A stretch of DNA of 63,948 bases from a virus (lineage: Duplodnaviria; Caudoviricetes). The notes beneath the pieces were generated by a model. That model worked only from the letters and a program-made list of their open reading frames with translations. It ran no database searches and was not told the DNA's origin. Numbering within the stretch: position 1 is the first letter of the stretch; each line of letters opens with the position of its first letter. Positions 16,510 through 58,572 of the stretch are shown in pieces. Location of the stretch: positions 1 to 63,948 of IMG/VR virus record IMGVR_UViG_3300046787_000415. One strand, written 5' to 3'. The position numbers and the translations under genes were made by a program.

Positions 16510-17613
16510 CTAATCTGCATCCGAGCTTACCACACGGAAGGTATTTCCGCCAGTTGGCTTTAGCTCTTTCCAGATCATAGGGATAGTAGTACGGTCTTCA
16601 TACATCATAAAGAAGTAGCCCTTATCCTTTTCATCCTTGACAGCCAATGCAAAGTTCTTCTTTGCTTCGCGCTCTTCAACATGTGGGTGAGAGAAGGTAT
16701 CTTCTAGTGGTCCAAACATGATTGCCCGATACGCCTTGATAAGTTCTAGGTGGCGCTTCTCGAAATCTGCCCATAGGCGGTTAGCTACTTCTTTAATCCA
16801 AACGTGAAACTCGTCAGGTGCTCCAGCGAACTCGGAGTCTAGGTCCTTCTCTTCCATCAGGCACTCCCAGACGTGACGTTCAGTCACACGAGTCATGTAC
16901 TTGTGAAGTCGCTTGTAGTCTTCGTACTTAATCTTGACCATTGCACCATCGGATACGCGAGTAACGACAAAGCCCTCAGCATTTTCACGCTCAGGGGCAT
17001 TTAGAACATCACCCCAGGTCTCGTAACTGTAGCGAGTAGCACAGTCCACCTCAGGAACCCAGCTAGGCTCGAAATGACCAGTCTCGTTATCCACAGTGCC
17101 AAGAAATACCAAGCCCTCTTTACCGTTGTAATCAACGACGATTCGGTTCTCAGGAAAAATGATTTCCCATAAATAGGTCTTTCCAGCCTCAAGAGCAATA
17201 TCTGGACGATTTTCGCGCCACCAGTTAGTTGCCCAAATAGCCTGGTCCGATGCAAAAGATCCACGGGTAGCGATAGCCTCCGAGAAGTCAGGCAGATAGT
17301 ATAAGATACCTAGAGATCCGTCAGCCTTATCAGAAGCGATAACTTTGTCGTCCAAAGACAACTTAGGAGCTTGCTCCTGGTCAGAGTTAAAGAACTTAGG
17401 CATACCGCGTGCAACGATATTGCCATCGTCATCCGTAATAAGTCCACGACAATTTAGGGTTGCCTCATCCCAAGCTTGGTCCCATGTGCAGGCGTCAGTG
17501 TAGTTGTGAACTAAATACCCTTGCACTTCAGGGTGCGACTGAACTTTGATATACCCAGCTTCTACAGCTTTTTTGTAGGTACCGCGGTCAATTACGTTGA
17601 AAATGTTAGCCAT
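16510..17613 (-). CDS. RNA ligase (T4 Rnl1-like)
   Basis: CRGL, KFFN, KADGS, TRGSF, EGFV and KIK nucleotidyltransferase motifs; coupled to Pnk. Confidence 0.9.
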   Translation of the reverse strand: MANIFNVIDRGTYKKAVEAGYIKVQSHPEVQGYLVHNYTDACTWDQAWDEATLNCRGLITDDDGNIVARGMPKFFNSDQEQAPKLSLDDKVIASDKADGSLGILYYLPDFSEAIATRGSFASDQAIWATNWWRENRPDIALEAGKTYLWEIIFPENRIVVDYNGKEGLVFLGTVDNETGHFEPSWVPEVDCATRYSYETWGDVLNAPERENAEGFVVTRVSDGAMVKIKYEDYKRLHKYMTRVTERHVWECLMEEKDLDSEFAGAPDEFHVWIKEVANRLWADFEKRHLELIKAYRAIMFGPLEDTFSHPHVEEREAKKNFALAVKDEKDKGYFFMMYEDRTTIPMIWKELKPTGGNTFRVVSSDAD

Positions 17614-34572: not shown

Positions 34573-34664
34573 TAGTATATAAAGTCTCTCTTTGGCTTTT
34601 TCTTAGGGAATAAGCAGTATTTAACCTTCAGGTATGCACGTTCTATATAGTATGCAATCTTCAT
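34572..34664 (-). CDS. 30-aa basic peptide coupled to the carbamoyltransferase (not in ORF track)
   Basis: MKIAYYIERAYLKVKYCLFPKKKPKRDFIY; TGATG and TAATG overlaps at its two ends. Confidence 0.6.
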   Translation of the reverse strand: MKIAYYIERAYLKVKYCLFPKKKPKRDFIY

Positions 34665-36100
34665 CATGATATAACACCCTTCTCGTAGTAGGTTTCCCAG
34701 GCAAGAACATCTACGTCATCATTTAAAACTGGTTGACCTTTTATATTCAAACTAGTGTTCAATAGAATTGGAACTCCAGTTTTTTGATAGAAAGCACTTA
34801 GTACAGCATACAGCCCTGGGTGCTGCTCTTTATTTACTGTCTGAACTCTAGAGGTGCCGTCAGCATGTACAACACTCGGTATCAGCTCTGGTTTTAGGCA
34901 TTTAGGCGTGAACTGCATATAAGGGGATGCGTAATCCATGTCAAACCACTCGCTTGCATATTCTTCCATAACTACTGGAGCAAACGGCCTGAACAGCTCA
35001 CGTTGCTTAATCTTATTTACTTTGTCCTTGATATTAGGATCACGAGGATCAGCAAGAATGCTACGATTCCCCAGAGCTCTTGGCCCATACTCTGCCTTTC
35101 CACTAGCTACTGGTGCCACTTTATCTTTAATAAGGGCGTCTACTATTTTGTCTACAGGATATTCACCAGGGATGTCAGTACCTAAGTACGGGCCCTGCCA
35201 GTCTAGCTTTTTACCGTAAACAATCGCTGCGGCACCTAGCGATGAGCCAGCATCCCCTGGGTTAGGCATAATCCAAACACCATCAAATAGATTCCATAGG
35301 GTGGTGTTTGCCTTACTATTTAAGGCACAGCCGCCCATGAATACAAGATTAGATTTACCAGTCTTCTTTTTTGCATAGAGCATGAAATCCCAAAGCCTGA
35401 GCTCATATACTTTTTGAACAGCAGCCGCGATATCAAAACGATCCTGCTCAGTTATTTCCTGGCCCCAGTTATCTATACCCTTATGAAAGTTATACGTCTG
35501 GTAGTCAAACCTAGGGAAGTAGTGAAGAACTTTATAGTAGTACTTAGTCCAGTCACCATAGGCAGCCATACCCATCATGATGTATTCTTCCTCGTTTGGC
35601 TTAAGACCAATCAAATGAGTAAACGCTGAGTAGAAAAGTCCATAACTAAATGGATACTTCCAACGTTTAACTTGCTTAAGTTCATCACCTTCGCCAACCC
35701 AGATAGAGCTGGTAGTAAACTCGCCAATAGCATCCAACACAACAACTACAGCATCATCGAACGGCGAGGTATAGTAGCCAGCTGCCGCATGGGAGTGATG
35801 GTGGTATGCAGTATAGGTTGGAATATCTCGCAGTTCTGGCATGCTCTTATAGAATGGCTTACCACCACCTAACCCGCCTCGCGAGAGTATGCGCCACTTC
35901 TTTAGCCAGCGATCCTCATAGTAGGCGATCTGGTCTGGCTTACCATAAGACAGTGCTTCTAGGAGTATCTCCCTATTGGTATACCAATCATTCTTCTTCT
36001 TGGAGTATCGCTCAGCGTGAGCAGCAAAAAGTATTTTGCCATTTTCAACGACAGAGACAGCTGCGTCGTGTGTTGTCTCATTTATCCCAAGTATTCTCAT
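34664..36100 (-). CDS. carbamoyltransferase (NodU/CmcH/TobZ family)
   Basis: HDAA, ER..K.K, HH.SHAA, GGCALN, GDAG, E.GPRALGNRSIL, RPFAP, NTSLN. Confidence 0.93.
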   Translation of the reverse strand: MRILGINETTHDAAVSVVENGKILFAAHAERYSKKKNDWYTNREILLEALSYGKPDQIAYYEDRWLKKWRILSRGGLGGGKPFYKSMPELRDIPTYTAYHHHSHAAAGYYTSPFDDAVVVVLDAIGEFTTSSIWVGEGDELKQVKRWKYPFSYGLFYSAFTHLIGLKPNEEEYIMMGMAAYGDWTKYYYKVLHYFPRFDYQTYNFHKGIDNWGQEITEQDRFDIAAAVQKVYELRLWDFMLYAKKKTGKSNLVFMGGCALNSKANTTLWNLFDGVWIMPNPGDAGSSLGAAAIVYGKKLDWQGPYLGTDIPGEYPVDKIVDALIKDKVAPVASGKAEYGPRALGNRSILADPRDPNIKDKVNKIKQRELFRPFAPVVMEEYASEWFDMDYASPYMQFTPKCLKPELIPSVVHADGTSRVQTVNKEQHPGLYAVLSAFYQKTGVPILLNTSLNIKGQPVLNDDVDVLAWETYYEKGVIS

Positions 36101-38269: not shown

Positions 38270-40105
38270 TTAGTTTCCACGATATTGCACGATTCCTAGA
38301 TTCTGGGTCCCGCCCGACGAAAGCCTAGCCACTACCTTAATCATAATCTCTTGATTGATTCGGGTAGCAATAACCCTAGAGATGGCACTAGAAGACACAG
38401 ATCCAACAACTACCCAGACATCAGTACCTAGCGGAGCTGTATATATGTCATAGCCACTAGCCCCCAATACTGCGCCCCAGGAGACATTTACTGCGCCAGA
38501 TCCAGCTCTACGCTGAGTAGCAATTACGGTCCCCTGTAGACCAGAAGGTAAGTCTGATACTGGCTCAAAGGCATTAGGTATCCCAGTGCCGAGAATGGAT
38601 AGCTCCGTAGTTGGAGCTCCAGCACCAGCAACTGTCTTCGAGACCACCCTGTAAGTATCCGTAGCCCCAGCGGTAGGCTGGCCTGCCTGGTAGTAGCTAT
38701 TAGTAGTCTCATGCACGGTGACCCAAGTGCCGTTCTTCAATACTTGAATGGCATACGAAGGAATCACGCTACCTCCGTTATAGCTAGGGGCAGACCAAGT
38801 AAGGGTGTAGTTCTTAATCTTAAAGTTCTGAGGGGCACTAGGTACGCCATATGGAGCATAGAAGTAGACCAGTGAACCTTCAGCCAGCTTAACTCCACCT
38901 CGACCATACGGCACTACCTTAACTACATAGTCAGTGTTGCTATATAGATTGTCCACACTAATTTCTGTGTAGGAGGTGTTGGCAGTGTAGATGTATCCAG
39001 CTTGGCCCTTACGTCCAATCTTTACAGAGTAGTAGCTGACACTATCCCTAGGTGTCCATGCTAGAGACACTACCCTAGGTCCTATATTCATAATGAAGAC
39101 ATCCTGCGTAGCAGGGGTCATATCTAGGGTAGGCGTGGCTGGCAGACTCACAGGGGTGCTTGCTGATGTTTTGGCTACGATAGCTATATCATTGTACGAA
39201 GACTTACCACCAACAACTACAGACTTATCTGATAGCGAGTGCAGTAGAGACTCCGCCGATATTGCTGTAGTGACAGAGCGGTTAGAGATGTAGGTAGCGA
39301 TAATCCCAGAGACAAAAGGGCTAGCCTGAGACGTTCCGCTCTTCTGCACAGACGATGAGTGATTGAACGGGGTATCTGAGGCTATACGAGACCCTGGTGC
39401 AAAGATGTCTACACAGGAACCCCAGTTAGAGAAAGGTGACTTAACGTCTACGTTATCTACAGCACCAACTGCGATAACCCCAGGGGTGCTAGCAGGGGAA
39501 CTAGTGCATGCATCAACATTAGAATTACCAGCAGCTGATACCACAATAAGACCAGCGGAGATAAGTCTAGAAGTAGCGGCATTTACTGCATCGTCCTTCG
39601 GACCACCGAGGCTCATATTCACTATCTCCAGTGATCCAGGAGCATGATTAGCCAAGATCCAGTCAATGCCAGCAGTCAATGTCGAGGTCTTACCTTGACC
39701 AGCACAGTTCAACACTCTAACTGGAACGATTGTTGCTTTCTTTGCTACACCAAAATAGGCACCAGCGGCCAGCCCAGCGACATGAGTACCATGCCCATGG
39801 CAGTCAACTTGGTCTAAGTTCTCCCCAAAAGAGTCAAACCCATCCGCGACTCTCCCGCTAAAGTCTGGGTGAGTCGAGTCAACTCCAGTATCTACTATGT
39901 AGATACGAACACCGTCGCCAGATGATCCGTAGGTGTACGCCCCGTCTTTGATGCCATCTATGCGATCTAGCGACCAGGGAGCACTGCCCTGTGTTTCCAT
40001 GATGCTAAAAGTATTCTCTACAGCTGTACTAGGCATAGCTCCGAACCCATGTGGGATAAGGGCAAGCATGGCAGCTATGGCAGTACTAGTTAGTTTTCTA
40101 ATCAT
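38270..40105 (-). CDS. exported S8 subtilisin-like serine protease (proteinase K/aqualysin type) with FN3 domains
   Basis: signal peptide; VDTG, HGTHVAG and SGTSQA triad motifs; C-terminal FN3-like repeats. Confidence 0.92.
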   Translation of the reverse strand: MIRKLTSTAIAAMLALIPHGFGAMPSTAVENTFSIMETQGSAPWSLDRIDGIKDGAYTYGSSGDGVRIYIVDTGVDSTHPDFSGRVADGFDSFGENLDQVDCHGHGTHVAGLAAGAYFGVAKKATIVPVRVLNCAGQGKTSTLTAGIDWILANHAPGSLEIVNMSLGGPKDDAVNAATSRLISAGLIVVSAAGNSNVDACTSSPASTPGVIAVGAVDNVDVKSPFSNWGSCVDIFAPGSRIASDTPFNHSSSVQKSGTSQASPFVSGIIATYISNRSVTTAISAESLLHSLSDKSVVVGGKSSYNDIAIVAKTSASTPVSLPATPTLDMTPATQDVFIMNIGPRVVSLAWTPRDSVSYYSVKIGRKGQAGYIYTANTSYTEISVDNLYSNTDYVVKVVPYGRGGVKLAEGSLVYFYAPYGVPSAPQNFKIKNYTLTWSAPSYNGGSVIPSYAIQVLKNGTWVTVHETTNSYYQAGQPTAGATDTYRVVSKTVAGAGAPTTELSILGTGIPNAFEPVSDLPSGLQGTVIATQRRAGSGAVNVSWGAVLGASGYDIYTAPLGTDVWVVVGSVSSSAISRVIATRINQEIMIKVVARLSSGGTQNLGIVQYRGN

Positions 40106-47408: not shown

Positions 47409-47771
47409 TTGAGCGCCCCAGCAGCACTGTACAACATCGTAGCCGATCAAGGCTCGACACTTTCGCGCATCATCTATTACAAAGATCCAGCTAAAAAGCC
47501 TATAGCCTTCACAGGGTATAAAGCTCGTATGCAAGTTAGGGCTAATAACTCAAGTGAATCTCTAATTTTAGAGCTCACGACCGAGAATGGTGGCATTGAG
47601 CTGGGAACTACTGACGGCAGCATAGCTCTACTTGTAGATGACGTAACTATGGCCTCCATTTCAGAGGGTATCTACTCATACGATCTAGAGTTGGTAGCTC
47701 CCTCAGCAGACTTATTCGTATATAAAATCCTTCAAGGCAACTTTGCAGTTAGATCAGAGGTGACCAGATAA
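47409..47771 (+). CDS. virion structural/adaptor protein; paralog of the ORF starting at 63812
   Basis: DQGST...GYKARMQVR...YDLEL pattern seen at the start of tail-appendage operons. Confidence 0.7.
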   Translation: MSAPAALYNIVADQGSTLSRIIYYKDPAKKPIAFTGYKARMQVRANNSSESLILELTTENGGIELGTTDGSIALLVDDVTMASISEGIYSYDLELVAPSADLFVYKILQGNFAVRSEVTR

Positions 47772-48568
47772 TGGCTGGATACACAGTTAGCTCCGTTACT
47801 GCAGGCAAGCACGCTCGCCAGGTAACAGTAGCCGCTTCAGGGCCTCAGGGAGCTGCAGGGCCTAAGGGAGATAGAGGAGACGCTGGAGTCCCTGGCGGTC
47901 TCTCCGCTCCATATAAATTTTTGAATACTTATGCGTCAACAAATCCAGGAACTGGACACTTAGCCTTCAATACTTCTAGTATTTTTTCAGCAACTGCACT
48001 ATATATATCAGAGACTGACTCTCAGACAGATAGTCAGACGGGGCTACTAGATGCTGCAATAACTTCAACTAATAGCTACAAAGCAGTTATCACTGTTCAA
48101 GATGCGGTAAATACTCGAAAATTTTCTAGATACTACGTATTAGAGCAGTCGATGTCTTCTGGTTGGAGGACCCTAGACATCGCGTATATTGATGGCACTG
48201 CAAGATCCTGGACCTATAATGACAATCTAGTTTTTGTGGTCTCCCCTATTGGAGACGCAGGGACCACTGGCGCAGTAGGTCCAACGGGTGCCGTTGGTCC
48301 TGGAGTCCCTGCTGGTGGCTTGGCAGGTCAGATTCTACGTAAGACTGGGCTAGCAGACTATGCCACCGAGTGGGTAGACCCAAATCAGGTGGAAAGCGTT
48401 GCAGTATCAGAGTTGACTGATGTTCAACTCACTGATGTAGGCAATGGTCAGGTCTTGGTTTACGATCCTGAAATATCTAAATGGGTCAACAAGTCAACGC
48501 TGGAGATAGGCATATCAGCCTCCAGCATCTCAGGTACAATTAATGGTGGGTCAGCTAGCGAATTCTAG
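47771..48568 (+). CDS. tail fibre protein with short collagen-like repeats
   Basis: GPQGAAGPKGDRGDAGVPG and GDAGTTGAVGPTGAVGPG; GG..GQ.L.K...DY..EW; L.DV...GQVLVY...W.N. Confidence 0.75.
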   Translation: MAGYTVSSVTAGKHARQVTVAASGPQGAAGPKGDRGDAGVPGGLSAPYKFLNTYASTNPGTGHLAFNTSSIFSATALYISETDSQTDSQTGLLDAAITSTNSYKAVITVQDAVNTRKFSRYYVLEQSMSSGWRTLDIAYIDGTARSWTYNDNLVFVVSPIGDAGTTGAVGPTGAVGPGVPAGGLAGQILRKTGLADYATEWVDPNQVESVAVSELTDVQLTDVGNGQVLVYDPEISKWVNKSTLEIGISASSISGTINGGSASEF

Positions 48569-48589
48569 CAATAACTTTAGGGTGTAATT

Positions 48590-48964
48590 ATGGCAGTTCA
48601 AATACAACTACGAAATGATACAGCGGCAAACTGGACCGCAGCGAACCCAACTCTAGCTAAGGGAGAACTTGGCGTAGAGATCGACACTAACAAGATGAAA
48701 ATCGGAACTGGTGTCACTGCATGGAATGATCTTCCATATACAGGGATAGATTCACAAGAGATAGTACCTCTGGTGTCGTACTCCCACGTACAGGGTGCAG
48801 ATAGCACTATCTGGACAATCGAACACAATCTAGGCTTCTACCCTGCTGTCACGATCTTTATGAGCTCGGGCGACATTGTAGAGGGAGCTATCGAACACCA
48901 AGACACAAATAACCTAACCATCACCTTCTCGGTTGCTATCTCTGGCACCGCGTACCTCTCCTAA
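48590..48964 (+). CDS. small fibre adaptor: Mtd_N-like domain plus HNLG domain
   Basis: IQLR.DTAANW...NP.LA.GE.G.E.DT...KIG.G...WN.L.Y; W.IEHNLG.YP.V. Confidence 0.78.
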   Translation: MAVQIQLRNDTAANWTAANPTLAKGELGVEIDTNKMKIGTGVTAWNDLPYTGIDSQEIVPLVSYSHVQGADSTIWTIEHNLGFYPAVTIFMSSGDIVEGAIEHQDTNNLTITFSVAISGTAYLS

Positions 48965-48974
48965 GGAATAACAA

Positions 48975-51395
48975 ATGGCAAAGCAGTTCTTAACGAACCT
49001 GAACCTCAACAAGAATGAGCTTCAGAATGCAAGGATCCAAAACCTTGCTACAGCTCCCTCTTCGCCTGTTGTAGGTCAGATCTACTACAACACCGTAGAT
49101 TCAGCTCTAAAATACTACGACGGTACATCATGGGTGGCACTTGCTGCTGGTGGTAATGTTACCGAAGCCATCGCTGCCGCAATTACTGCGTTGGACTTGG
49201 CAAATACTTACGATGCAATTGGATCAGCGTCTGCAGCTCAGACTGCTGCAGAAGGCTATGCTGACTCTCTAGCAGTCAACTACGATGCAGCTGGTACAGC
49301 CGCAGCTGCAGGTGCCGCATCAAATGCATATGCAGATAGCCTTGCCACTAACTATGACGCCGCTGGCGCTGCTGACAACGCACTTGGCGATGCAAAAGAT
49401 TACACCAATACTGTCTCTAACACTCTCACTACTGCAATTGCAACCGCTAAATCAGAAGCTATCACTGCTGCTGAAGGTTACGCTGATACTGCAGTCGCTG
49501 CGTTAGTTGACGGTGCTCCAGATCTACTAAATACTCTAAACGAACTTGCAGCTGCTATTGCAGACAACCCGAGCTATGCAACTGACGTTGCAAACCTTGT
49601 TGCAGGTAAGCAAAACAATCTAACTGCTGGCACATCTATTAGCCTCGTAGATGATGTAATCTCTGTTGTTGCTTCAGACTTTGATGCTTCTGGATCTGCT
49701 GCATCTGCTGAAGCCGCAGCGAAGTCTTACGCAGATGGACTTGCAGCTAACTACGACGCTGCAGGCTCTGCTACTTATGCCCTTAATAGCGCCAAAGACT
49801 ACACAAATACTGTAGCAACTGGACTGCAGTCAGATATTGACAATGCTGTAGCAGGAATTTTCGCTACATCTTCTGGAGACGGTCTAAAAGTTGTTGATAG
49901 TGTACTAAGTGTCGATGCAGGTACTGGACTTGACTTCAACATTAATGGCGCTCTAAAGGTTGACCGCACAGCTACAGATGCTTGGTATGATGCAGCTGGA
50001 TCGGCCTCAACAGCTGAATCTAATGCAGCTACCTACACTGATTCGGCTGTTGCAAGTCAGGCAACAACTACAGAAGCCGCGTACAAGAACTATGCAAATG
50101 CTATTGGCACTAACGTAACTTCAGCTTTCGAGCTTGCGGACCAGGGGCTATCGCAGGACATCTCTGACCTGTCTAACACAGTAACAGCTTCTGTTAGCGG
50201 TCTTGGTACTGATATCAGCAACGCTATTCAGACCTCGAAGGACTACACCAACACTGTAGCTTCTGGTCTATCTACCGATATCAGCAACGTAGCCTCCGAC
50301 CTAACCTCTGGGCTAGACGCACTCGAGATCAGCCTAACCTCTGACTTCAACGCTGCAGATGATGTAGTTCTTTCTACTCTCCGTGGCGAGATCGCGGCTT
50401 CCGCTCAAGGGCTAGACGTAAAAGAGTCTGTAAAGGCTCTCGTTACAACTAATGTAAATATCGCTACTACCATGACAATCTACGACCAGATTGTGGATGG
50501 ACCAGGAGTAGACGGGGTACCATTTACAAACGGAGTACCAGTCCGACTACTCCTTGTCGGTCAGACAGATGCTTCAGAGAATGGTATCTATGTACACAAC
50601 TATGGTGCAAATACTTGGACCCGTGCCGACGATGCGTTAGAGATCACCCCAGGAACCTTCACCTTTGTTGAGTCAGGAACCGTTCACGGAGACACTGGCT
50701 GGGTAGTCACAACTGATGGCGATATCGTAGTAGGTACTACTTCAATTTCATGGACTCAGTTCTCTGGTACTGGTCAAATCACAGCTGGAAATGGCATCAC
50801 CAAGAGCGGCAGCACCCTCTCAGCTGCAGCTGGTTCTGGAATTACTGTTGATGTAAACGGCATCTCAATTGCGTCTGACTACGCTGGTCAGTCTTCAATC
50901 GATACAGTCGGAACCATCACTTCTGGTACATGGAATGGCTCAACCATTGATGTTGCTAACGGTGGTACTGGAGCTAGCTCACTTACTGGTTATGTAGTAG
51001 GTAACGGCACCGATCCTCTAGGCGCTCTAGCTGTAATACCTGGTTCAGACATCGATGGTGACATCTCTGGAAACGCCGAGAACGTAAATGGAACCGTGGC
51101 AATTGCTAACGGTGGTACTGGAGCAACTACTGCTGCTGGTGCACGTTCAAACCTTGGTGCAACCACTAAGTACTCAGAGAACAACTCAAGCTTGACTCCT
51201 TCAGCTGGTGTTGTTACCTGGACCGTAACCCACGGGATTGGCACCCTCGATGTGACAGTCCAGATCCGCGACCTAGCAGATAACTCGCTAGTGGAAGCTG
51301 ATGTAATGGTTACAAGCACCAATGCAGTCACTATTTCATGGATCGCTAGCTCAACTGTTTCAGCTGACAGCTACCGTGTAGTGGTAATCGGTTAA
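48975..51395 (+). CDS. long tail fibre protein
   Basis: Ala-rich YADSLA.NYDAAG.A repeats; LNTLNELAAA; Q....ENGIY...W.RA.D; V.NGGTGA repeats. Confidence 0.82.
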   Translation: MAKQFLTNLNLNKNELQNARIQNLATAPSSPVVGQIYYNTVDSALKYYDGTSWVALAAGGNVTEAIAAAITALDLANTYDAIGSASAAQTAAEGYADSLAVNYDAAGTAAAAGAASNAYADSLATNYDAAGAADNALGDAKDYTNTVSNTLTTAIATAKSEAITAAEGYADTAVAALVDGAPDLLNTLNELAAAIADNPSYATDVANLVAGKQNNLTAGTSISLVDDVISVVASDFDASGSAASAEAAAKSYADGLAANYDAAGSATYALNSAKDYTNTVATGLQSDIDNAVAGIFATSSGDGLKVVDSVLSVDAGTGLDFNINGALKVDRTATDAWYDAAGSASTAESNAATYTDSAVASQATTTEAAYKNYANAIGTNVTSAFELADQGLSQDISDLSNTVTASVSGLGTDISNAIQTSKDYTNTVASGLSTDISNVASDLTSGLDALEISLTSDFNAADDVVLSTLRGEIAASAQGLDVKESVKALVTTNVNIATTMTIYDQIVDGPGVDGVPFTNGVPVRLLLVGQTDASENGIYVHNYGANTWTRADDALEITPGTFTFVESGTVHGDTGWVVTTDGDIVVGTTSISWTQFSGTGQITAGNGITKSGSTLSAAAGSGITVDVNGISIASDYAGQSSIDTVGTITSGTWNGSTIDVANGGTGASSLTGYVVGNGTDPLGALAVIPGSDIDGDISGNAENVNGTVAIANGGTGATTAAGARSNLGATTKYSENNSSLTPSAGVVTWTVTHGIGTLDVTVQIRDLADNSLVEADVMVTSTNAVTISWIASSTVSADSYRVVVIG

Positions 51396-51435
51396 TAGTA
51401 AAATATTTAGACAGACTAAGGAAAAGGTCACTTAA

Positions 51436-51663
51436 ATGGCAAAGAAGTTTCTCTCCCCGATTAACATCGTTAACGGAACAGAGTATCCAGTTCAGGCATC
51501 TTCTGGTGACCTTTTCTTTAGATCTGACTTAGGAGCTATGTACACCTACGATGGTTCGGCATGGGTCTCTATGACAGCTTCAGACATTACAAATGTAGAT
51601 GGTGGAAATGCATCAAGTGCGTACAACATCAACTACGACGGTGGAAACCCTTCCAGCTTCTAG
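51436..51663 (+). CDS. small fibre adaptor protein
   Basis: N-terminus MAKKFL similar to 48975; C-terminal DGG motifs. Confidence 0.7.
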   Translation: MAKKFLSPINIVNGTEYPVQASSGDLFFRSDLGAMYTYDGSAWVSMTASDITNVDGGNASSAYNINYDGGNPSSF

Positions 51664-51684
51664 AGTATATAAGGAATAAGACAA

Positions 51685-53886
51685 ATGGCAGTTAGAATTC
51701 AGTTCAGACGCGGCACCGCCGCTGAGTGGGCAAATGCTAATCCAGTACTAGCCGCTGGTGAACTAGGTTATGAGTCAGATACTGGCTCGTTCAAAATTGG
51801 TGACGCTACCAACAACTGGAACGCACTTTCATATGGTGCAATCAGTCAGTCATATGTAGACAATGCGCTTGCAGATGTAGTAGGTCTTGCCCCAGAGACT
51901 CTAGATACTCTAGCCGAGCTAGCTGCCTCTATTGGCGGCGACGCGAACTTCGGTAACACAGTTACAACTGGGTTAGCAACACTAGACGCCCACATAGATG
52001 ACTCTACAAATGTACATGGGATTGCAGATACTGCAGCTCTAGAAACTCAGACTGGCGCTCAAAACAAGGCAAATGCTGCTCAGGCAAACGCTGCGTCATA
52101 TACAGACACAGCCGTTGCTAATTTAGTAGACTCGGCTCCAGGGACTCTAAATACCCTGAATGAACTTGCAGCAGCTCTTTCGGATGACCCTAATTTTGCA
52201 ACCACCATAACTACATCGCTCGGTGGAAAAATTAATTTTGTAGTGGATACTGCTGCTAATTTTGCAGCCGCAAACGCAATAACTACAGTAGATACTCTAT
52301 ACATTGAAAGCGATCATGCTGGCTTTGTGCGCGTTGGCGATGGGGTCACACACTACAACAACTTAGATTTTGTTGGCAAGTCATACGCTGACAATCTGAT
52401 AAACGATCATGAAAACTTGGATACTAACGTTCACGGTATCTCCAATACCGCGAACTTGGCATACCAGACTGACATCACTAGCGCCCTAAATGCTACCTCA
52501 GACGTAGCAAATACACTGAGCAGCCACGAAGATCTAACTTCTGGGGTTCATGGCATCGCTAGCGTTGCTGACCTAGTAGTTACTTCAGGCCTAAACTCAG
52601 CTATAGATGTCCACAACTCGGACACCACTAACGTTCACGGTATTGCAAATACTGCAGAGCTAGTTACCACAACTATTTTGGCAGCACACTCAGATGATAC
52701 GATCAACGTTCACGGTATCGCAGACACTAGCACCCTAGTTGTTGCCTCGGACCTAGATGCTTATGCTCAATTGGATAGCCCTAGCTTCACTGGTACCGTT
52801 GCACTACCATCATCTACCTCGGTAGGAGACGTATCAGCTGCAGAACTTAGCTATGTAAATGGTGTCACTGGTTCAATTCAGACTCAGTTGGATTCAAAGC
52901 TTGACTCATCCACTGCAGCCACTACCTATGCCCCGCTAGCCGCTCCAACCTTCACTGGCACTGTAGGCCTACCATCGACTACTTCAATAGGAGATGTATC
53001 TGATGTAGAGATTGGCTACTTGAATGGCGTAACCTCTGCAATTCAGACTCAGATTGACACTAAAGCACCAACTGCAAATGCAACCTTCACTGGCACTACC
53101 TCTGGTATCACAAAGGGAATGGTTGGCCTGGGCAGTGTCGACAATACCGCCGATGCAGACAAGCCAATCTCTGATTCCGCTCAAGCTGCACTAGATTTAA
53201 AGGCAAACCTTGCTGGGGCAATCTTTAGCGGTGATGTGACCGTTACTGGTGACTTCACGGTAACTGGTACCACTACTACCGTTAACACCTCTAATTTCAC
53301 AACTTCAGACCCTCTCATATACCTAGGCGAGGGCAACGTTGGCAACACTGCTGACCTTGGCTTTGTAGCAAACTTCGATGACGGTACCTATCAACACACT
53401 GGGCTAGTTCGCGACGCATCCGCTAATACTTGGAAGCTATTTAAAGGTGTAACAGATGAGCCAACTGCCACAGTGAACTTTGGTCAGGGGTCACTTGATA
53501 ACCTAGCTGCAAATAACATTTCTGTAGCTGGAGTCGCGTTCACCGATGGTACTCAAACAAAAGTTGGCGTACCTTCAATATCTAGTTTTATATACAAGAC
53601 CTCTGGGTACACTCTAGACTCACTGTCCTTGCGGGACGGCATTATCGAAGTGGCAAATACCTTGCCATCGACTATTACAATCCCTCTGGACTCTGCTGTA
53701 GATTATCCGATCGGTACTAGCATTGACATTCTTCAGACATCAACTGGTCAAGTGACTATCGCTGGTTCTGGTGGAGTTACTATCAATTCAACTCCTGGAC
53801 TGAAACTAAGGACTCAGTGGTCATCTGCTACACTATTAAAGAGAGCTGCTAACACCTGGATCGTCTACGGCGACCTGACTGCTTAG
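51685..53886 (+). CDS. tail fibre protein with Mtd_N-like N-terminus and H-x7-HG repeats
   Basis: MAVRIQFRRGTA..W...NP.LA.GE; five VHGI repeats; C-terminal W.VYGDL domain. Confidence 0.82.
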   Translation: MAVRIQFRRGTAAEWANANPVLAAGELGYESDTGSFKIGDATNNWNALSYGAISQSYVDNALADVVGLAPETLDTLAELAASIGGDANFGNTVTTGLATLDAHIDDSTNVHGIADTAALETQTGAQNKANAAQANAASYTDTAVANLVDSAPGTLNTLNELAAALSDDPNFATTITTSLGGKINFVVDTAANFAAANAITTVDTLYIESDHAGFVRVGDGVTHYNNLDFVGKSYADNLINDHENLDTNVHGISNTANLAYQTDITSALNATSDVANTLSSHEDLTSGVHGIASVADLVVTSGLNSAIDVHNSDTTNVHGIANTAELVTTTILAAHSDDTINVHGIADTSTLVVASDLDAYAQLDSPSFTGTVALPSSTSVGDVSAAELSYVNGVTGSIQTQLDSKLDSSTAATTYAPLAAPTFTGTVGLPSTTSIGDVSDVEIGYLNGVTSAIQTQIDTKAPTANATFTGTTSGITKGMVGLGSVDNTADADKPISDSAQAALDLKANLAGAIFSGDVTVTGDFTVTGTTTTVNTSNFTTSDPLIYLGEGNVGNTADLGFVANFDDGTYQHTGLVRDASANTWKLFKGVTDEPTATVNFGQGSLDNLAANNISVAGVAFTDGTQTKVGVPSISSFIYKTSGYTLDSLSLRDGIIEVANTLPSTITIPLDSAVDYPIGTSIDILQTSTGQVTIAGSGGVTINSTPGLKLRTQWSSATLLKRAANTWIVYGDLTA

Positions 53887-53904
53887 TACTTAGGGAGATA
53901 AAAA

Positions 53905-54798
53905 ATGGCAAAGAAAGAGGCTGGCGGCCGTTCCGCTGCTCAAAATGACTTCCTGGAGCCCTTGGCACCAGAGAATGTGACCGCGACTGATGTAGGCACT
54001 AACCGTGCCTACGATAATGGCGCACTTACAATTACCTGGACGATTAATGCTTTATCTCCAGCGCCTACAGACTATCTAGTAGTCAATAGCGCTGGTACAA
54101 CCATCGGCAGCGGAACTCTTCCTACACCATCTAACGGTACATACACAGCTACAGTTACAGGACTAGCTAGCAACTCTTCAGTCACAGCTATTGTCAAGCT
54201 ATCTAATGCCGCTGGAACTTCTCAGGGGACTGCGGCACCTGCTAGAACCGTGACTACTGTACCAGCTAAGCCCGCTGCACCAACAGCATCTTCAACAGTG
54301 CCAGACCAAGACTCTGTCTCTTGGACAGCACCAGCCGACGGTGGAAAAGCTATTTCCAGCTACACCTGGGCATCTACAGATGCTAAGGGAAATACAGTCG
54401 CTTCAACTATCACTTCAATAGTTGTTCCACAGGAAATGAATACAGCGCAGCAGTACAGTGTTATTGCGACTAACGCTAACGGTAATTCTGCTGCATCAGA
54501 TCTGTCAGGTAACGTAACAACACTACCTCCGTTCTTCCCACCATTCTTCCCACCTTTCTTCCCACCTTTCTTCCCATTCTTCCCACCTTTCTTCCCACCA
54601 TTCTTCCCGTTCTTCCCACCTTTCTTCCCACCATTCTTCCCGTTCTTCCCACCTTTCTTCCCTCCTTTCTTCCCTCCATTCTTCCCACCATTCTTCCCGT
54701 TCTTCCCACCTTTCTTCCCTCCTTTCTTCCCGCCATACTTCGCTTACTCGATTCCATGGGAATCATGGGAAGAGCTAAAGGAAGACGACGATAAGTAG
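53905..54798 (+). CDS. FN3-domain virion appendage protein with C-terminal (PPFF)n tract
   Basis: two FN3-like domains (W.AP.DGG..I..Y); 72-aa Pro/Phe tract; acidic tail. Confidence 0.8.
   Translation: MAKKEAGGRSAAQNDFLEPLAPENVTATDVGTNRAYDNGALTITWTINALSPAPTDYLVVNSAGTTIGSGTLPTPSNGTYTATVTGLASNSSVTAIVKLSNAAGTSQGTAAPARTVTTVPAKPAAPTASSTVPDQDSVSWTAPADGGKAISSYTWASTDAKGNTVASTITSIVVPQEMNTAQQYSVIATNANGNSAASDLSGNVTTLPPFFPPFFPPFFPPFFPFFPPFFPPFFPFFPPFFPPFFPFFPPFFPPFFPPFFPPFFPFFPPFFPPFFPPYFAYSIPWESWEELKEDDDK
54526..54741 (+). repeat. coding tandem repeat: 14 x PPFF, 4 x PFF, 1 x PPYF
   Basis: CCN-CCN-TTC-TTC units with varied Pro wobble bases. Confidence 0.95.
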
Positions 54799-54867: not shown

Positions 54868-55599
54868 ATGAATATTTGGTTCACTAAAGATAGATCAGAG
54901 ACTGCATCCTCTAGAATGGCAGACCGCCAACTAGGCCATATGTCAGTACTCAATCCAGCACTAGGTATAAACGTCTATCGAAACGCTATATCAGCATCCG
55001 ACTGCGACAGATACATCTCTCAGTTGGAGGCCAATTTAGACGGCAGCACCCAGTTTCAGTGGAGCAATGCCAAAGTCTCCAACTCTGCTGAGGTCGATGA
55101 TTACGCTAGAAAAGCTCAGGACTTCAAGGTTTCAAGCAACAACTTAGGGCCTAGAACTTCAGAGAACTCTACCCTCTACGATCTCCACGAAGAGATTTTT
55201 CAGAAGCTACGCATGTGCGTCGATGACTACGGAGCCTACTGGGGCGTAGGCATACGAGCTTACGAAGCATTTAATTTTGTAAAGTATGAAGGTGCTGGCA
55301 CTCAGTTTAGGATTCACGCCGATCACGGGCCAACATACGTCGCAACAATATCTGCCGTTATATATTTAAATGATAACTACGAAGGCGGGGAGCTCTGGTT
55401 CCCACGATTCGGTGTAGACTTAAAGCCGAAACAGGGCGATATTGCAATTTTCCCTTCTACATTCATTTACGAGCATGCCTCGAAAGAAATGATAGACGGG
55501 ACCAAGTATGCCGTAGTTGTTATGACTGACTATCACGATAGAGATGGCGTCAATCAAAGAGTTTCCCAAGTTGTCGAAGACTATAAACTAAAGTACTAA
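54868..55599 (+). CDS. 2OG-Fe(II) oxygenase (prolyl 4-hydroxylase-like)
   Basis: HADHG, YLNDNYEGGEL, FPS...H......G.KY. Confidence 0.9.
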   Translation: MNIWFTKDRSETASSRMADRQLGHMSVLNPALGINVYRNAISASDCDRYISQLEANLDGSTQFQWSNAKVSNSAEVDDYARKAQDFKVSSNNLGPRTSENSTLYDLHEEIFQKLRMCVDDYGAYWGVGIRAYEAFNFVKYEGAGTQFRIHADHGPTYVATISAVIYLNDNYEGGELWFPRFGVDLKPKQGDIAIFPSTFIYEHASKEMIDGTKYAVVVMTDYHDRDGVNQRVSQVVEDYKLKY

Positions 55600-55607
55600 G
55601 GATAAAA

Positions 55608-56390
55608 ATGGCACAGGACCTAACTCCAGAAGAGCTAGTAGAGAAGCAAAAAGCAGACGCCGCTATTGATCTAAAGGGCAAGCAAGAGCAGCAAAATCTT
55701 CAAAATAGATTAGCTAAGTGGTACACCTTAGATGAGCAAACATGGTCATCCTCTCAGGAAGTAATCCCTGGTAGCGGTATCTGGGTCTATAGGGACGTTC
55801 TCCCTAAAGAGATGAATATCATTAAGCGACTAGAGTCTGTTGTAGACGATCCATCCAATAACTATGACTGGCGTGAAGCTATGGTTGGGTATCAAATGAA
55901 GATGCCAGAGTATCGCGACTGCGTAGATTTTAAATACAAGAAGACCGACATAGAGCATGACAGTTCTGAAGCTGGAGAAATCCTAAAGAAGCTAGCAGAT
56001 GACGTGACATATAGAGAACTCCAGGTAGTTAAGGACTATACCCGCCACTACAACATCGGCGAGCTTCGCTACTGGGAAGCGACTAACTACGTTCGTTACG
56101 GCGAAGGCCAGCACTTCCAGGAGCACCACGATCACGGCTACTCATACAACTGCGTAGTCTCTCTAGTAGCATTTCCAAACGACGAGTATGAGGGGGGCGA
56201 GCTGTTCTTTAGACTGCAGAACGCGCAAATAAAGGCTCGCGCTGGTGATGTATATATCTTTCCATCGAACTTCATGTATCCTCACCGCGCTATGCCAGTG
56301 AAGTCAGGTGTCAAATACTCAATGGTTACGATGCTAGATTTCTCTGAAAAATATCACCGCCCAGAATTCTATGAAGATACAGACGCATAG
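55608..56390 (+). CDS. 2OG-Fe(II) oxygenase (prolyl 4-hydroxylase-like)
   Basis: HHDHG, NDEYEGGEL, FPSN..YPH....V.SG.KYS. Confidence 0.9.
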   Translation: MAQDLTPEELVEKQKADAAIDLKGKQEQQNLQNRLAKWYTLDEQTWSSSQEVIPGSGIWVYRDVLPKEMNIIKRLESVVDDPSNNYDWREAMVGYQMKMPEYRDCVDFKYKKTDIEHDSSEAGEILKKLADDVTYRELQVVKDYTRHYNIGELRYWEATNYVRYGEGQHFQEHHDHGYSYNCVVSLVAFPNDEYEGGELFFRLQNAQIKARAGDVYIFPSNFMYPHRAMPVKSGVKYSMVTMLDFSEKYHRPEFYEDTDA

Positions 56391-57157
56391 TGAGTGTTAT
56401 CAAAGTCCAAAAGCTTTTCCCCGAGGGTAAAACAGCTAACATAGAGCAGCTCCAAGCTCGTCGAGATTGGATGGATAGTACCGACGATAAGCACGCCTAC
56501 ATGTGCTTCCCGATCAATCTGACTAATAGACTTGGATGGGGGATATCGTTTCCCGAGGATCTTAGGTTCATCTGGGACGGCATAACTGACACCACTCCAG
56601 ACCATGTGACGATTTTAGAGGGTCATCAGTTTCTAAATACTGGTAGAGGAAACGCCACTATTAGTTTTACTACTGGATTGAAACTTATAACCGACTCTGA
56701 TACTACGATGTTGACCATGCCAGTCCCTAATCAATTTATTAGAGGGACCCAGTGCTATACGACTCTAATGAGTACCTCGTTCTATATGCACATGTTGCCT
56801 ATAGCCTGGCGACTCACTGAGCCTAATGTAGAAATATATATCCCTGCGGGGACACCAATTGCCGCAGTATTGCCAATATCATTGAACGCCCTGCAGCAGG
56901 ACTACAGCCTAGAAATTTTAGATGGCCTTCCGACCCAGGAGTACTGGCAGGAAGTTCGCAAGTATGGCGACATCCAAGAAATCAAGAATGGTGTAGGCGA
57001 TTGGTCAAAAATGTACCGAGATGCTGTCGACTATAGAGGAGAAACAGTGGGAGCCCACGAAACAAAATCAATCAAGCTTAAGACAGTAACGTGCCCATTC
57101 ACTGGCCAGACCTATGAAGTAGAGGAGGGGGAGTCGGATGGACACTCAGAAAGCTAA
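56390..57157 (+). CDS. DUF6065-like protein
   Basis: RDWMD.T..KHAY.C.P....N..GW; I.AGTPIA.VLPI. Confidence 0.65.
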   Translation: MSVIKVQKLFPEGKTANIEQLQARRDWMDSTDDKHAYMCFPINLTNRLGWGISFPEDLRFIWDGITDTTPDHVTILEGHQFLNTGRGNATISFTTGLKLITDSDTTMLTMPVPNQFIRGTQCYTTLMSTSFYMHMLPIAWRLTEPNVEIYIPAGTPIAAVLPISLNALQQDYSLEILDGLPTQEYWQEVRKYGDIQEIKNGVGDWSKMYRDAVDYRGETVGAHETKSIKLKTVTCPFTGQTYEVEEGESDGHSES

Positions 57158-57878
57158 ATTCATACTAAATAGACCGTGGCTCAATAACGAGAGCCCGTCT
57201 AAGCCAGGACCTGCAATAAAGACTATTCCAGATTGGTATAGAAACGCAGATCGTTTTGCTGTCAACCCAATGACGGGGAAGCCCTGGGAGATGCCAAACG
57301 GTGGAGGTAAGATTCCCACATGGAAGGCGTGTCCAGCCGTATACGACATCATGGGCAGCGGGTATATGTATAAGACTCCCTGCGATATAGAGTTCTACGA
57401 GGATTCTATGGGGCAAATCCAAGTTAAAGTTTTGGACGAGAAGAATAAAGATTTTATCCAAGAACGTATGCCGATGCCGCAATTCCATAACCCATATGGA
57501 TACCACGAGAAGCATTTTGCTTGGTGGGCTGACTGGGCCGTAGAGCTGCCTGAAGGCTACAGCGCTCTATATACCCAGCCTTTCAACCGTTTCGAGTTAC
57601 CATTCCTGACGACCAGCGGGATTATCGACAATGACAAGGTGCATTTACCTGGCACTATGCCATTCTTCATTGCTAAAGGATTCAAGGGGACTATCCCAGC
57701 TGGCACACCCTACGCCCAGATACTTCCGTTCAAGCGCGAGAACTGGGAGTCGGAGACGATTACTAAGTTCGGGCCTATGGAGATGATGGCAAAAAATCAG
57801 GAAAATAGTGTTAAATATCGAGTTCCAGATGGCGGCGTATATCAACGCGAGGTCTGGGAACGACGTAAGTACGAGTAG
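57138..57878 (+). CDS. DUF6065-related (dUTPase-like beta fold) protein
   Basis: PDWY...TWKACP...GY; P.GYSAL.TQP.NR; SGIID.D; IPAGTP.AQ..PFKRE.W. Confidence 0.6.
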   Translation: MDTQKAKFILNRPWLNNESPSKPGPAIKTIPDWYRNADRFAVNPMTGKPWEMPNGGGKIPTWKACPAVYDIMGSGYMYKTPCDIEFYEDSMGQIQVKVLDEKNKDFIQERMPMPQFHNPYGYHEKHFAWWADWAVELPEGYSALYTQPFNRFELPFLTTSGIIDNDKVHLPGTMPFFIAKGFKGTIPAGTPYAQILPFKRENWESETITKFGPMEMMAKNQENSVKYRVPDGGVYQREVWERRKYE

Positions 57879-57892
57879 GGTAGGATAGCTAT

Positions 57893-58570
57893 ATGGCAAT
57901 GACAGCGCATGTTACTAACGGTAGCGATAGACCTTATGAATCAACCACGCCTTCTGGATTTTTCGGTGACTCTAAAGACAACATTGTTGCACTCGAAAAC
58001 TTTATGACCGAGGATGAGCTCAGAATTTTAACGGAGTTCGCCAAGACTAACCAGACCTGGGATAAAACCGAGACTCACTACAACGAGGACGGAACTGTCA
58101 TTTATGACTCTGGCTACTGGGACCATAGAGTTGCTACTGCCCCTACGCTAAACAGCGTGGATCCTTCGATCTCGGAACTTATTGTGGGCATGCAGCTTCG
58201 ACTAAAGGAGAAGGTAGACGAGTTCTTTAGCGTGGATGCGCATGCGACTAGCCCTGCAATCGTTAGGTGGCTTCCTGGCCAGCGCCAACAGCCTCATGCC
58301 GATAAAGAGCTTCACGAGGGCGAAAACCGCGGCAAGCCGAACGACTTCCCATACTACGACATCGCTGGTCTTTTCTACATCAACGATGACTACGAAGGTG
58401 GTGAACTATACTTCCCTAACCAGGGGATTCAGTTTAAACCTAAGGCTGGAGCGGCATACTTCTTTCCTGGTGACATGCACTACATCCATGGAGTGACGGA
58501 GATTAGGTCTGGAATTAGATATGTATGCCCATTCTTTTGGACTATAAAACGTCACTTAGATAAGGGTTAA
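57893..58570 (+). CDS. 2OG-Fe(II) oxygenase
   Basis: PHAD, YINDDYEGGELYF, HGV....G.RY. Confidence 0.9.
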   Translation: MAMTAHVTNGSDRPYESTTPSGFFGDSKDNIVALENFMTEDELRILTEFAKTNQTWDKTETHYNEDGTVIYDSGYWDHRVATAPTLNSVDPSISELIVGMQLRLKEKVDEFFSVDAHATSPAIVRWLPGQRQQPHADKELHEGENRGKPNDFPYYDIAGLFYINDDYEGGELYFPNQGIQFKPKAGAAYFFPGDMHYIHGVTEIRSGIRYVCPFFWTIKRHLDKG

Positions 58571-58572
58571 AT

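Follow-up and report, generated by a model that had tools for sequence, protein, structure and literature searches.

Introduction

In phage T4, the long tail fibre is built of the segments gp34, gp35, gp36 and gp37, the products of consecutive genes; they join non-covalently, following the order of these genes, and the last of them carries the receptor-binding end. Here, we describe a candidate fibre gene row in a stretch of viral DNA of 63,948 bases (the whole of IMG/VR record IMGVR_UViG_3300046787_000415; Duplodnaviria, Caudoviricetes), referred to below as the window, which is estimated to represent ~56% of its genome. The row comprises seven closely packed open reading frames (ORFs) on the plus strand (47409-54798) and is built with four recurrent protein modules: a C-terminal tail centred on the residues DGG, an N-terminal head of the Pfam family Mtd_N, a C-terminal domain opened by a WxIxHNLG motif (Cdom), and an N-terminal head starting with MAKxFL. 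We find that DGG tails are followed by Mtd_N heads and Cdoms by MAKxFL heads, both in the window and in many other viral loci, and that one of these tail/head pairs of the window is predicted to dock. The ORFs, designated by their length in amino acids (aa), are listed below.

47409-47771, plus strand: p120 (120 aa), an immunoglobulin (Ig)-like protein resembling the T5 collar protein p132
47771-48568, plus strand: p265 (265 aa), putative first fibre segment, with an N-terminal anchor strand, collagen-like G-x-y triplets and the tail NGGSASEF
48590-48964, plus strand: p124 (124 aa), an Mtd_N head (residues ~1-52) and a type A Cdom (~63-124, WTIEHNLG...AYLS), and nothing else
48975-51395, plus strand: p806 (806 aa), a long MAKxFL head (1-60), a fibrous middle, a knob and a type B Cdom (~745-806, WTVTHGIG...YRVVVIG)
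51436-51663, plus strand: p75 (75 aa), a short MAKxFL head (~1-46) and two DGG units (54-63 and 68-75), and nothing else
51685-53886, plus strand: p733 (733 aa), an Mtd_N head (1-50), an internal Mtd_N-like stretch, a fibrous middle and, at the C-terminus, a domain ending in GDLTA (~53554-53883)
53905-54798, plus strand: p297 (297 aa), a neighbouring protein in which an FN3 domain is followed by a (PPFF)n repeat

The chain that we propose for the window follows gene order, as does the T4 fibre; the two differ in their connecting pieces, which are the monomeric hinge gp35 in T4 and minimal head-plus-tail adaptors in the window. The idea that gp36 and gp37 of T4 form the same joint was rejected, since the N-terminus of gp37 gives only a weak match to the Mtd_N profile (residues 6-32, 11 bits) and gp36, unlike the window tails, ends in ...DFGYY and has no DGG tail. 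The Cdom and MAKxFL profiles gave no score in T4 gp34-gp38.

The Mtd_N heads of the window correspond to the N-terminal cap domain found in Mtd of Bordetella phage BPP-1 and in HylP hyaluronidases of streptococcal phages (PF18454; PDB 2c3f, 2yvv, 2dp5, 6x3m). In the founder phage of the Pfam family, BPP-1, the gene that lies 15 nucleotides (nt) before mtd encodes Bbp9, a putative tail fibre whose terminal residues ...ADLGGIA are a loose match only, while in Javan126 the gene upstream of hylP ends in ...ILDGRRDR and, unlike the window tails, has no DGG.

In phage T5, according to an excerpt of PMC10038345, a dodecamer of p132 constitutes the collar to which the L-shaped fibres are attached, and about 50 N-terminal residues of pb1 are intertwined in this collar. 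A docking peptide is known from podophages of Klebsiella, namely KP32, K11 and KP34, where excerpts of PMC6872550 and PMC13352976 describe a branching domain on receptor-binding protein 1 (RBP1) and a conserved docking peptide on RBP2. As far as these excerpts go, the likeness with the window lies in a short conserved peptide that docks onto a domain of another protein and in the modularity of the fibres. The KP32-type peptide, however, is N-terminal on the second protein and yields a branch, whereas in the window the peptide is C-terminal on the first protein and the cap is N-terminal on the next one. The modules of the two systems are unrelated, and no KP32-type (T4 gp10-like) branching domain was named in our Pfam and PHROG scans, for which no dedicated profile was run. 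The 'two-protein chain-like fibres' of Pseudomonas phage A1002 were also considered and set aside, being a different architecture that an excerpt of PMC13730344 presents as dimers strung on a rope protein. Overall, the principle of joined fibre segments is known and the window modules differ from the known ones; a description of either joint was not found in the literature searched, which included few subscription journals and no supplementary files.

Results

Terminal modules of the window

The initial annotation had named six of the ORFs and proposed that, along the row, the C-terminus of each product announces the N-terminus of the next. All six ORFs and their motifs are found where it had placed them: p265 terminates with NGGSASEF (48542-48565), p124 starts with MAVQIQLR and contains an internal WTIEHNLG, p806 starts with MAKQFL and contains WTVTHGIG, p75 starts with MAKKFL and terminates with DGGNPSSF, p733 starts with MAVRIQFR, and PPFF repeats are present in p297. 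There are exactly two occurrences of each of the four motifs, in the genes and in the order described, and none elsewhere among the 219 window ORFs of at least 50 aa. On the other hand, the WxIxHNLG motif, which had been presented as a C-terminal feature, does lie in the last domain but opens this domain of ~50-60 aa instead of closing the protein.

The Pfam profile Mtd_N (PF18454) matches p124 and p733 with 56.7 and 51.8 bits, respectively (gathering cut-off 26.3), at their extreme N-termini (residues 5-43 and 5-40), and a search of the genome recovers both proteins. By BLASTP, p124 shares 52% identity with the N-terminus of p733 across 58 aa (E 9e-16), and p75 resembles the N-terminus of p806 (29%, 72 columns, E 5e-6). 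The similarity between the C-terminal WxIxHNLG domains of p124 and p806 is weak (27% over 52, E 0.02), and the two DGG tails, when compared with each other, are too short to reach significance on their own (E 0.7-2.6).

We rejected a recent duplication of the junction DNA, as the DGG/Mtd_N and the Cdom/MAKxFL junction pairs align in coding positions only and display no intergenic similarity. Read-through or fusion of the gene pairs was discarded as well: both spacers are in frame, yet each carries further in-frame stops, and the genes are therefore separate.

Pairing of DGG tails with Mtd_N heads

Loci were pulled from IMG/VR with the modules that were later counted, keeping for each search the top 80 of some 600 matches, namely the best 80 of 584 confirmed matches for the Mtd_N head and the best 80 of 510 for the MAKxFL head; a tail-only set of 40 loci was collected with one narrow tail subfamily as query. 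Modules were then assigned over all loci with four profiles derived from our own alignments, and the resulting pairing table covers about 200 viral loci and holds 975 distinct pairs of adjacent genes on the same strand.

Adjacency statistics across phage genomes were one of the checks that the initial annotation had put forward. They reveal a strictly type-specific pairing of tails and heads that recurs in hundreds of viral loci and in cultured phages, so that the rule by which a C-terminus predicts the next N-terminus is not peculiar to the window. A DGG tail is followed by an Mtd_N head in 63 of 65 pairs, by a MAKxFL head in none and by another start in 2 (Fisher p 2e-60, for pairs that are not independent), while C-termini that are neither DGG nor Cdom are followed by Mtd_N 64 times, by MAKxFL 0 times and by other starts 750 times. 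The modules also keep to the ends of the proteins, Mtd_N being N-terminal in 158/164 matches and the DGG tail C-terminal in 104/110 when the profiles are run over all loci.

The individual sets give the same picture. All 84 matches of the first Mtd_N set (best 80 of 584) are N-terminal and none is internal; 74 of its 78 distinct junctions have a same-strand upstream gene at most 120 nt away, and 53 of these 74 upstream genes end with a DGG-type tail, compared with 26 of 636 other genes, and several of these 26 actually precede Mtd_N genes lost to de-duplication or to the choice of ORFs. In the tail-only search every match lies 26-31 residues from the stop codon, and an Mtd_N start comes next in 30 of 31 distinct loci, with a 1-nt stop overlap; the exception is cut by the end of the contig. 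Such a 1-nt overlap between stop and start is found at 68 of 104 junctions.

Furthermore, the joint is subdivided. Tails of the form GG.A..F at the C-terminus pair with 'RND' Mtd_N heads in 24/30 cases and those of the form GG.[PE]..F with 'RRG' heads in 8/8, and the two DGG joints of the window fall in different sub-classes, GG.A..F/'RND' for the p265 tail and GG.P..F/'RRG' for the other. The strict eight-residue motif of the initial annotation, [DN]GG.[AP]S.F at the very end, holds in the window's clade but occurs in 0/74 upstream genes of the other Mtd_N junctions; it is specific to this clade, and what recurs more generally is a tail of looser form, (I/L/V)DGG-x-(A/P).... Among six cultured phages examined, four carry the DGG-to-Mtd_N joint (Arthrobacter phage Ryan gp31/32, Gordonia phage Catfish gp26/27, Xanthomonas phage FoX4 gp33/34 and Prochlorococcus phage PSS2 gp066/067), and their hosts are unrelated.

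The proteins on the two sides of the joint are very diverse. Upstream proteins bearing the tail measure 46-1101 aa and belong to at least five N-terminal classes, Mtd_N proteins cover 63-1292 aa and fall into five or more C-terminal classes, and in the tail-only set a near-identical tail is followed by Mtd_N proteins of 63-746 aa. This mosaic on both sides, with near-identical junctions carrying very different downstream bodies, is also what would be seen if the gene ends were homology patches for the swapping of fibre cassettes, any contact between the proteins being incidental. We consider this explanation rather improbable. Conservation is found at the protein and not at the DNA level, the window junctions show no intergenic similarity, and tails and heads that are ~30-40% identical across host phyla are too diverged for homologous recombination. 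Moreover, exchange at these ends is compatible with docking and would probably be its consequence, not an alternative to it.

Two other terminal features were observed in these loci. A head of the type MAxxPSNxxYGTV follows small Mtd_N proteins ending in ...IDGGTA (loci L012/L169, L024, L168-L206) and may represent a further class of joint. A short hydrophobic C-terminal tag (...FLLMGA, ...VIMGAY) is present on 13 of 104 Mtd_N-headed proteins (L019, L024, L050, L070 and others) and may be another terminal signal.

Pairing of Cdoms with MAKxFL heads

The Cdom is C-terminal in 177 of 181 matches. In the pairing table, 82 of 96 Cdoms have a MAKxFL head next to them, 0 have Mtd_N and 14 have other starts (Fisher p 3e-105, here too with non-independent pairs); seen from the other side, a Cdom stands upstream of the MAKxFL head in 82/82 distinct pairs. 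The MAKxFL set (best 80 of 510) contains 44 distinct headed genes, and all 41 of those with an upstream gene follow a Cdom-ending protein. The initial annotation had regarded this as a second docking pair. The adjacency that it had noticed is confirmed, but two Cdom subtypes co-vary with two head subtypes in place of one single pair: type A (...AYLS) precedes the long MAKxFL head in 41/42 cases and type B (...YRVVVxG) the short one in 39/39.

Cultured phages follow the same order. Rhodobacter phage RcRios (gp9-gp12) and Dinoroseobacter phage R26L (gp104-gp101) have the row of the window, in which a p120-like gene is succeeded by a short Cdom protein, by a protein with both a head and a Cdom, and by one more headed protein, and in Erwinia phage SNUABM_32 the step from gp98 to gp97 obeys the rule. 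In R26L (L216, 1613-3145), a 510-aa protein whose N-terminus looks portal-like, by eye alone, is encoded directly before the p120-like gene and the fibre row. PDB sequence matches of the MAKxFL head, to designer beta-propeller blades and to the fibre gp28 of cyanophage P-SCSP1u (E 0.26), were taken as chance.

Gene order of this kind could also arise if each headed protein attached on its own, or as a branch, to a common hub such as the collar or the baseplate and not to the protein before it, the adjacency reflecting inherited order and translational coupling. The conserved tails and heads would then be no more than ordinary ends of fibre proteins. Indeed, the Cdom/MAKxFL row is a conserved synteny block from the window to RcRios and R26L, the 1-nt stop/start overlaps point to a coupling of expression that requires no contact, and other phages are well known to carry more than one receptor-binding protein on a single hub. 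Nevertheless, we judge such independent attachment unlikely, because the pairing is strictly type-specific, with no cross pairs among the 975 (DGG to MAKxFL 0, Cdom to Mtd_N 0), and because the DGG-to-Mtd_N joint recurs across unrelated gene contexts and host phyla.

Predicted complex of p75 and p733

Multimer modelling, the other check suggested by the initial annotation, was carried out on the joint between p75 and p733. Three copies of p733(1-100) were modelled with three copies of p75 by ESMFold2, with our own alignments supplied and with three controls. The 3:3 model reached interaction prediction scores from aligned errors (ipSAE) of 0.63, 0.62 and 0.62, and the best of the three controls 0.35. 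In a benchmark, 58 of 80 solved complexes attained the score mark, as did 2 of 110 mismatched pairs; these numbers apply only roughly here because own alignments were supplied and three copies of each chain were used. The runs have at least 94% of the contacts in common, and the partner is modelled with a predicted local distance difference test score (pLDDT) of at least 73.

The modelled interface involves Mtd_N residues 1-11, 14-15, 17-18, 20, 23, 28 and 45 and p75 residues 51-61, 63 and 65, so that the first DGG unit of p75 would sit on the most conserved face of the Mtd_N cap. A sequence search of the PDB yielded no similar complex, Mtd_N being found there only in phage hyaluronidases and without a partner. 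The model supports binding of the p75 tail to the Mtd_N head of p733. The proposal of the initial annotation is thus favoured for one of the four joints (0.62 versus 0.35), though with contacts off the terminal motif that it had named. That the model beat its controls is also an argument against attachment of each protein to a common hub.

Fibre segments and putative adaptors

The same gene row is found in six uncultured relatives (L003-L008); no cultured phage is close in DNA, blastn matches never being longer than ~110 bases. Within the row, p265 has its G-x-y triplets at residues 23-42, and its PHROG tail-fibre matches fall on this collagen-like part; the Pfam Collagen profile PF01391 scored 14.7 bits against p265, under its cut-off of 27.2. 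The fibrous part of p806 has weak PDB matches to FibU gp68 of phage 80alpha (6v8i, E 8e-4) and to 'Tail collar fibers gp4' (9d93, E 0.013).

Two very small members of the chain, p124 and p75, consist of one head and one tail of opposite types, and from this composition they are read as adaptors that would convert one joint type into the other. The C-terminal domain of p124 is matched by phrog_30556 and phrog_34633. For p75, orthologues are 71-97% identical in the relatives and 32-40% in more distant loci, and counterparts with the same two ends span 76-914 aa.

A natural variant bears on the role of p124. In loci L050, L070 and L095, one protein of 105 aa is made of a p265-type N-terminus fused straight to a type A Cdom, whereas the window clade has instead p265, with the anchor and the DGG tail, and p124, with Mtd_N and the type A Cdom. 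Two proteins therefore occupy the place of a single polypeptide elsewhere, which fits the prediction of a non-covalent joint between them. The existence of this single-protein equivalent speaks against independent attachment to a hub, under which p124 and p75, being head and tail only, would moreover be pointless stubs.

Alternatively, p124 and p75 could be remnants of rearranged fibre genes in the course of decay, or they could be assembly chaperones. Both proteins are very small, with 124 and 75 aa, and a tblastn search with p75 against 50,697 phage records gave no match at E <=0.01. Intact orthologues, however, are present in all six close relatives and in many loci (32-97% identity), equivalent adaptors of 65-93 aa occur in other lineages, including gp31 of Arthrobacter phage Ryan, and the same ends are found on fibre proteins of 300-1100 aa. 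As for chaperones, the genes of those known for tail fibres are usually located behind the fibre gene rather than ahead of it. We hold either origin to be highly improbable.

Base and distal end of the row

The gene p120, which had been absent from the initial annotation, shares 1 nt with p265 between its stop and the start of the latter. It matches phrog_1084 (E 3e-19) and phrog_3304, 'L-shaped tail fiber protein assembly' (E 7.7e-6). Its AlphaFold model (pLDDT 87.8) has as top Foldseek matches the ~140-aa chains of the T5 tail tip (7qg9, J/L) and of the DT57C baseplate (8hqz, Q/T), with template modelling (TM) scores of 0.72-0.76, E 3e-7 to 8e-7 and a sequence identity of 12-16%; from the entry title and PMC10038345, we read these chains as p132. 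Thus p120 has the p132 fold, and it directly precedes the first fibre gene; the T5 fibre, however, is the single protein pb1, and that of the window a putative chain. Since p132 forms the fibre-bearing collar of T5, a dodecameric ring around a ring of p140, p120 is by analogy likely the anchor at the base of the fibre. In 52 distinct loci in which a downstream gene is available, the p120-like gene is followed by a Cdom-ending protein in 40, by a protein with a DGG tail in 8 and by others in 4; the 40 Cdom cases are one protein of ~100 aa, with the anchor N-terminus and a type A Cdom.

At the opposite end, p733 matches 'Tail collar fibers gp4' (PDB 9d93, E 1.6e-9). Its internal Mtd_N-like stretch (residues 182-231; 52228-52377, plus strand) resembles p124 (E 3e-6) and is kept in L003-L007; it is immediately preceded by ...SLGGK in the window and in L003, a sequence lacking in L005-L007. 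Together, ...SLGGK and the internal Mtd_N could represent a covalent version of the joint. The C-terminal domain of the p733 type was found in 25 distinct proteins, mostly at the end of a fibre gene row, and it is likely the tip.

The initial annotation had instead placed the PPFF protein, p297, at the tip, and this assignment is not upheld. The module profiles found no head in p297, and the gene after the p733-type domain codes for a PPFF protein in only 5 of 20 evaluable loci, for a homologue without PPFF in 1 (L008) and for unrelated products in 14; this neighbourhood is confined to the close clade. The fn3 match of p297 (22.5 bits) is under the cut-off of 25; the protein falls in viral FN3 clusters of the Atlas, whose nearest structural clusters carry the glycine-rich domain PF21722. 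Between the FN3 region and the acidic end, about 100 residues are nearly all PPFF/PFF (~54470-54760, plus strand).

As to the surroundings, class Ib-like ribonucleotide reductase genes lie on the opposite strand upstream of the fibre row, and a run of 2-oxoglutarate (2OG)-Fe(II) oxygenase paralogues lies downstream: at 54868-61710 (plus strand), at least seven neighbouring members of phrog_61 are interrupted by two phrog_7084 proteins without known function. Elsewhere on the minus strand, the window encodes a 367-aa protein (16510-17613) matching phrog_562, 'RNA ligase and tail fiber protein attachment catalyst' (E 1.4e-65), a Nol-like carbamoyltransferase (34664-36100; phrog_1601, E 2e-102) and a protein matching the phage 'protease' family phrog_3677 (38270-40105; E 4.5e-70). 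The first presumably resembles T4 gp63/Rnl1, which aids fibre attachment.

Discussion

The four modules occupy the ends of the proteins, and their adjacency is both strict and widespread. Docking of DGG tails on Mtd_N heads is well supported; for Cdoms and MAKxFL heads, it is the adjacency of the genes that suggests docking. Taking these data together, we lean, by a little more than an even chance, towards the view that 47409-53886 encodes one segmented fibre, assembled in gene order and held by these joints. It would probably be a trimeric side fibre. In this assembly, the collar or anchor protein p120 would hold the N-terminus of p265, the DGG-type tail of p265 would dock on the Mtd_N head of p124, and the type A Cdom of p124 would take the long MAKxFL head of p806. 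The type B Cdom of p806 would then take the short MAKxFL head of p75, and the DGG units of p75 would dock on the Mtd_N head of p733, whose C-terminal domain would be the distal, probably receptor-binding, end.

Several points weigh against such an assembly. Docking is predicted for one of the four proposed joints; one control of that model rose to 0.35, and the contacts predicted with confidence involve the first of the two DGG units of p75 (51-65) and not the last eight residues, while the monomer model of p124 is poor (pLDDT 54.9) and unfit for a structure search. The pairing of tails and heads has exceptions: 20 of 127 Mtd_N heads have no upstream GG tail, S-RIM8 and Streptococcus phage Javan126, two of the six cultured phages examined, have no DGG tail before Mtd_N, and with a loose regular expression only 69 of 97 DGG tails precede Mtd_N. 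In 16 of these 28 exceptions a tail ...IDGGTA stands before the other head, MAxxPSNxxYGTV; DGG tails are therefore not exclusive to Mtd_N. As for the second joint, the whole Cdom/MAKxFL gene row looks like a single inherited block, no fused Cdom-MAKxFL protein occurs among the examined loci, and in Erwinia phage SNUABM_32 the gene after the Cdom protein gp97, gp96, has no MAKxFL head. The ORFs were called by a simple greedy rule, which is crude. Many loci share ancestry and were chosen by the very modules counted, and therefore the adjacency counts and the p-values overstate independence, the p-values being descriptive only. Finally, serial and branched geometries fit the data equally well, and we infer the serial one.

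Beyond the window, the same data may point to a small set of portable plug-and-socket joints (DGG/Mtd_N, type A Cdom/long MAKxFL and type B Cdom/short MAKxFL), with co-varying sub-classes that would render the joints of one virion orthogonal and so fix the order of assembly, adaptors such as p124 and p75 between the types, and an architecture that can be read from gene order and protein termini. We propose this generalization tentatively, at somewhat less than an even chance.

Among the parts of phage genomes, host-recognition fibres vary the most and are the hardest to interpret. Should these terminal tags be true docking joints, the order and composition of multi-protein fibres would become predictable from sequence, and the exchange of fibre modules between unrelated phages without loss of assembly would be explained. 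The contact surfaces would be defined, with Mtd_N residues 1-20, 23, 28 and 45 facing one DGG unit, and a role would be at hand for the very common and functionally unexplained Mtd_N cap, as well as for many of the tiny 'hypothetical' genes located between fibre genes. In phages of this kind, separately made pieces would probably clip end to end into one host-finding fibre.

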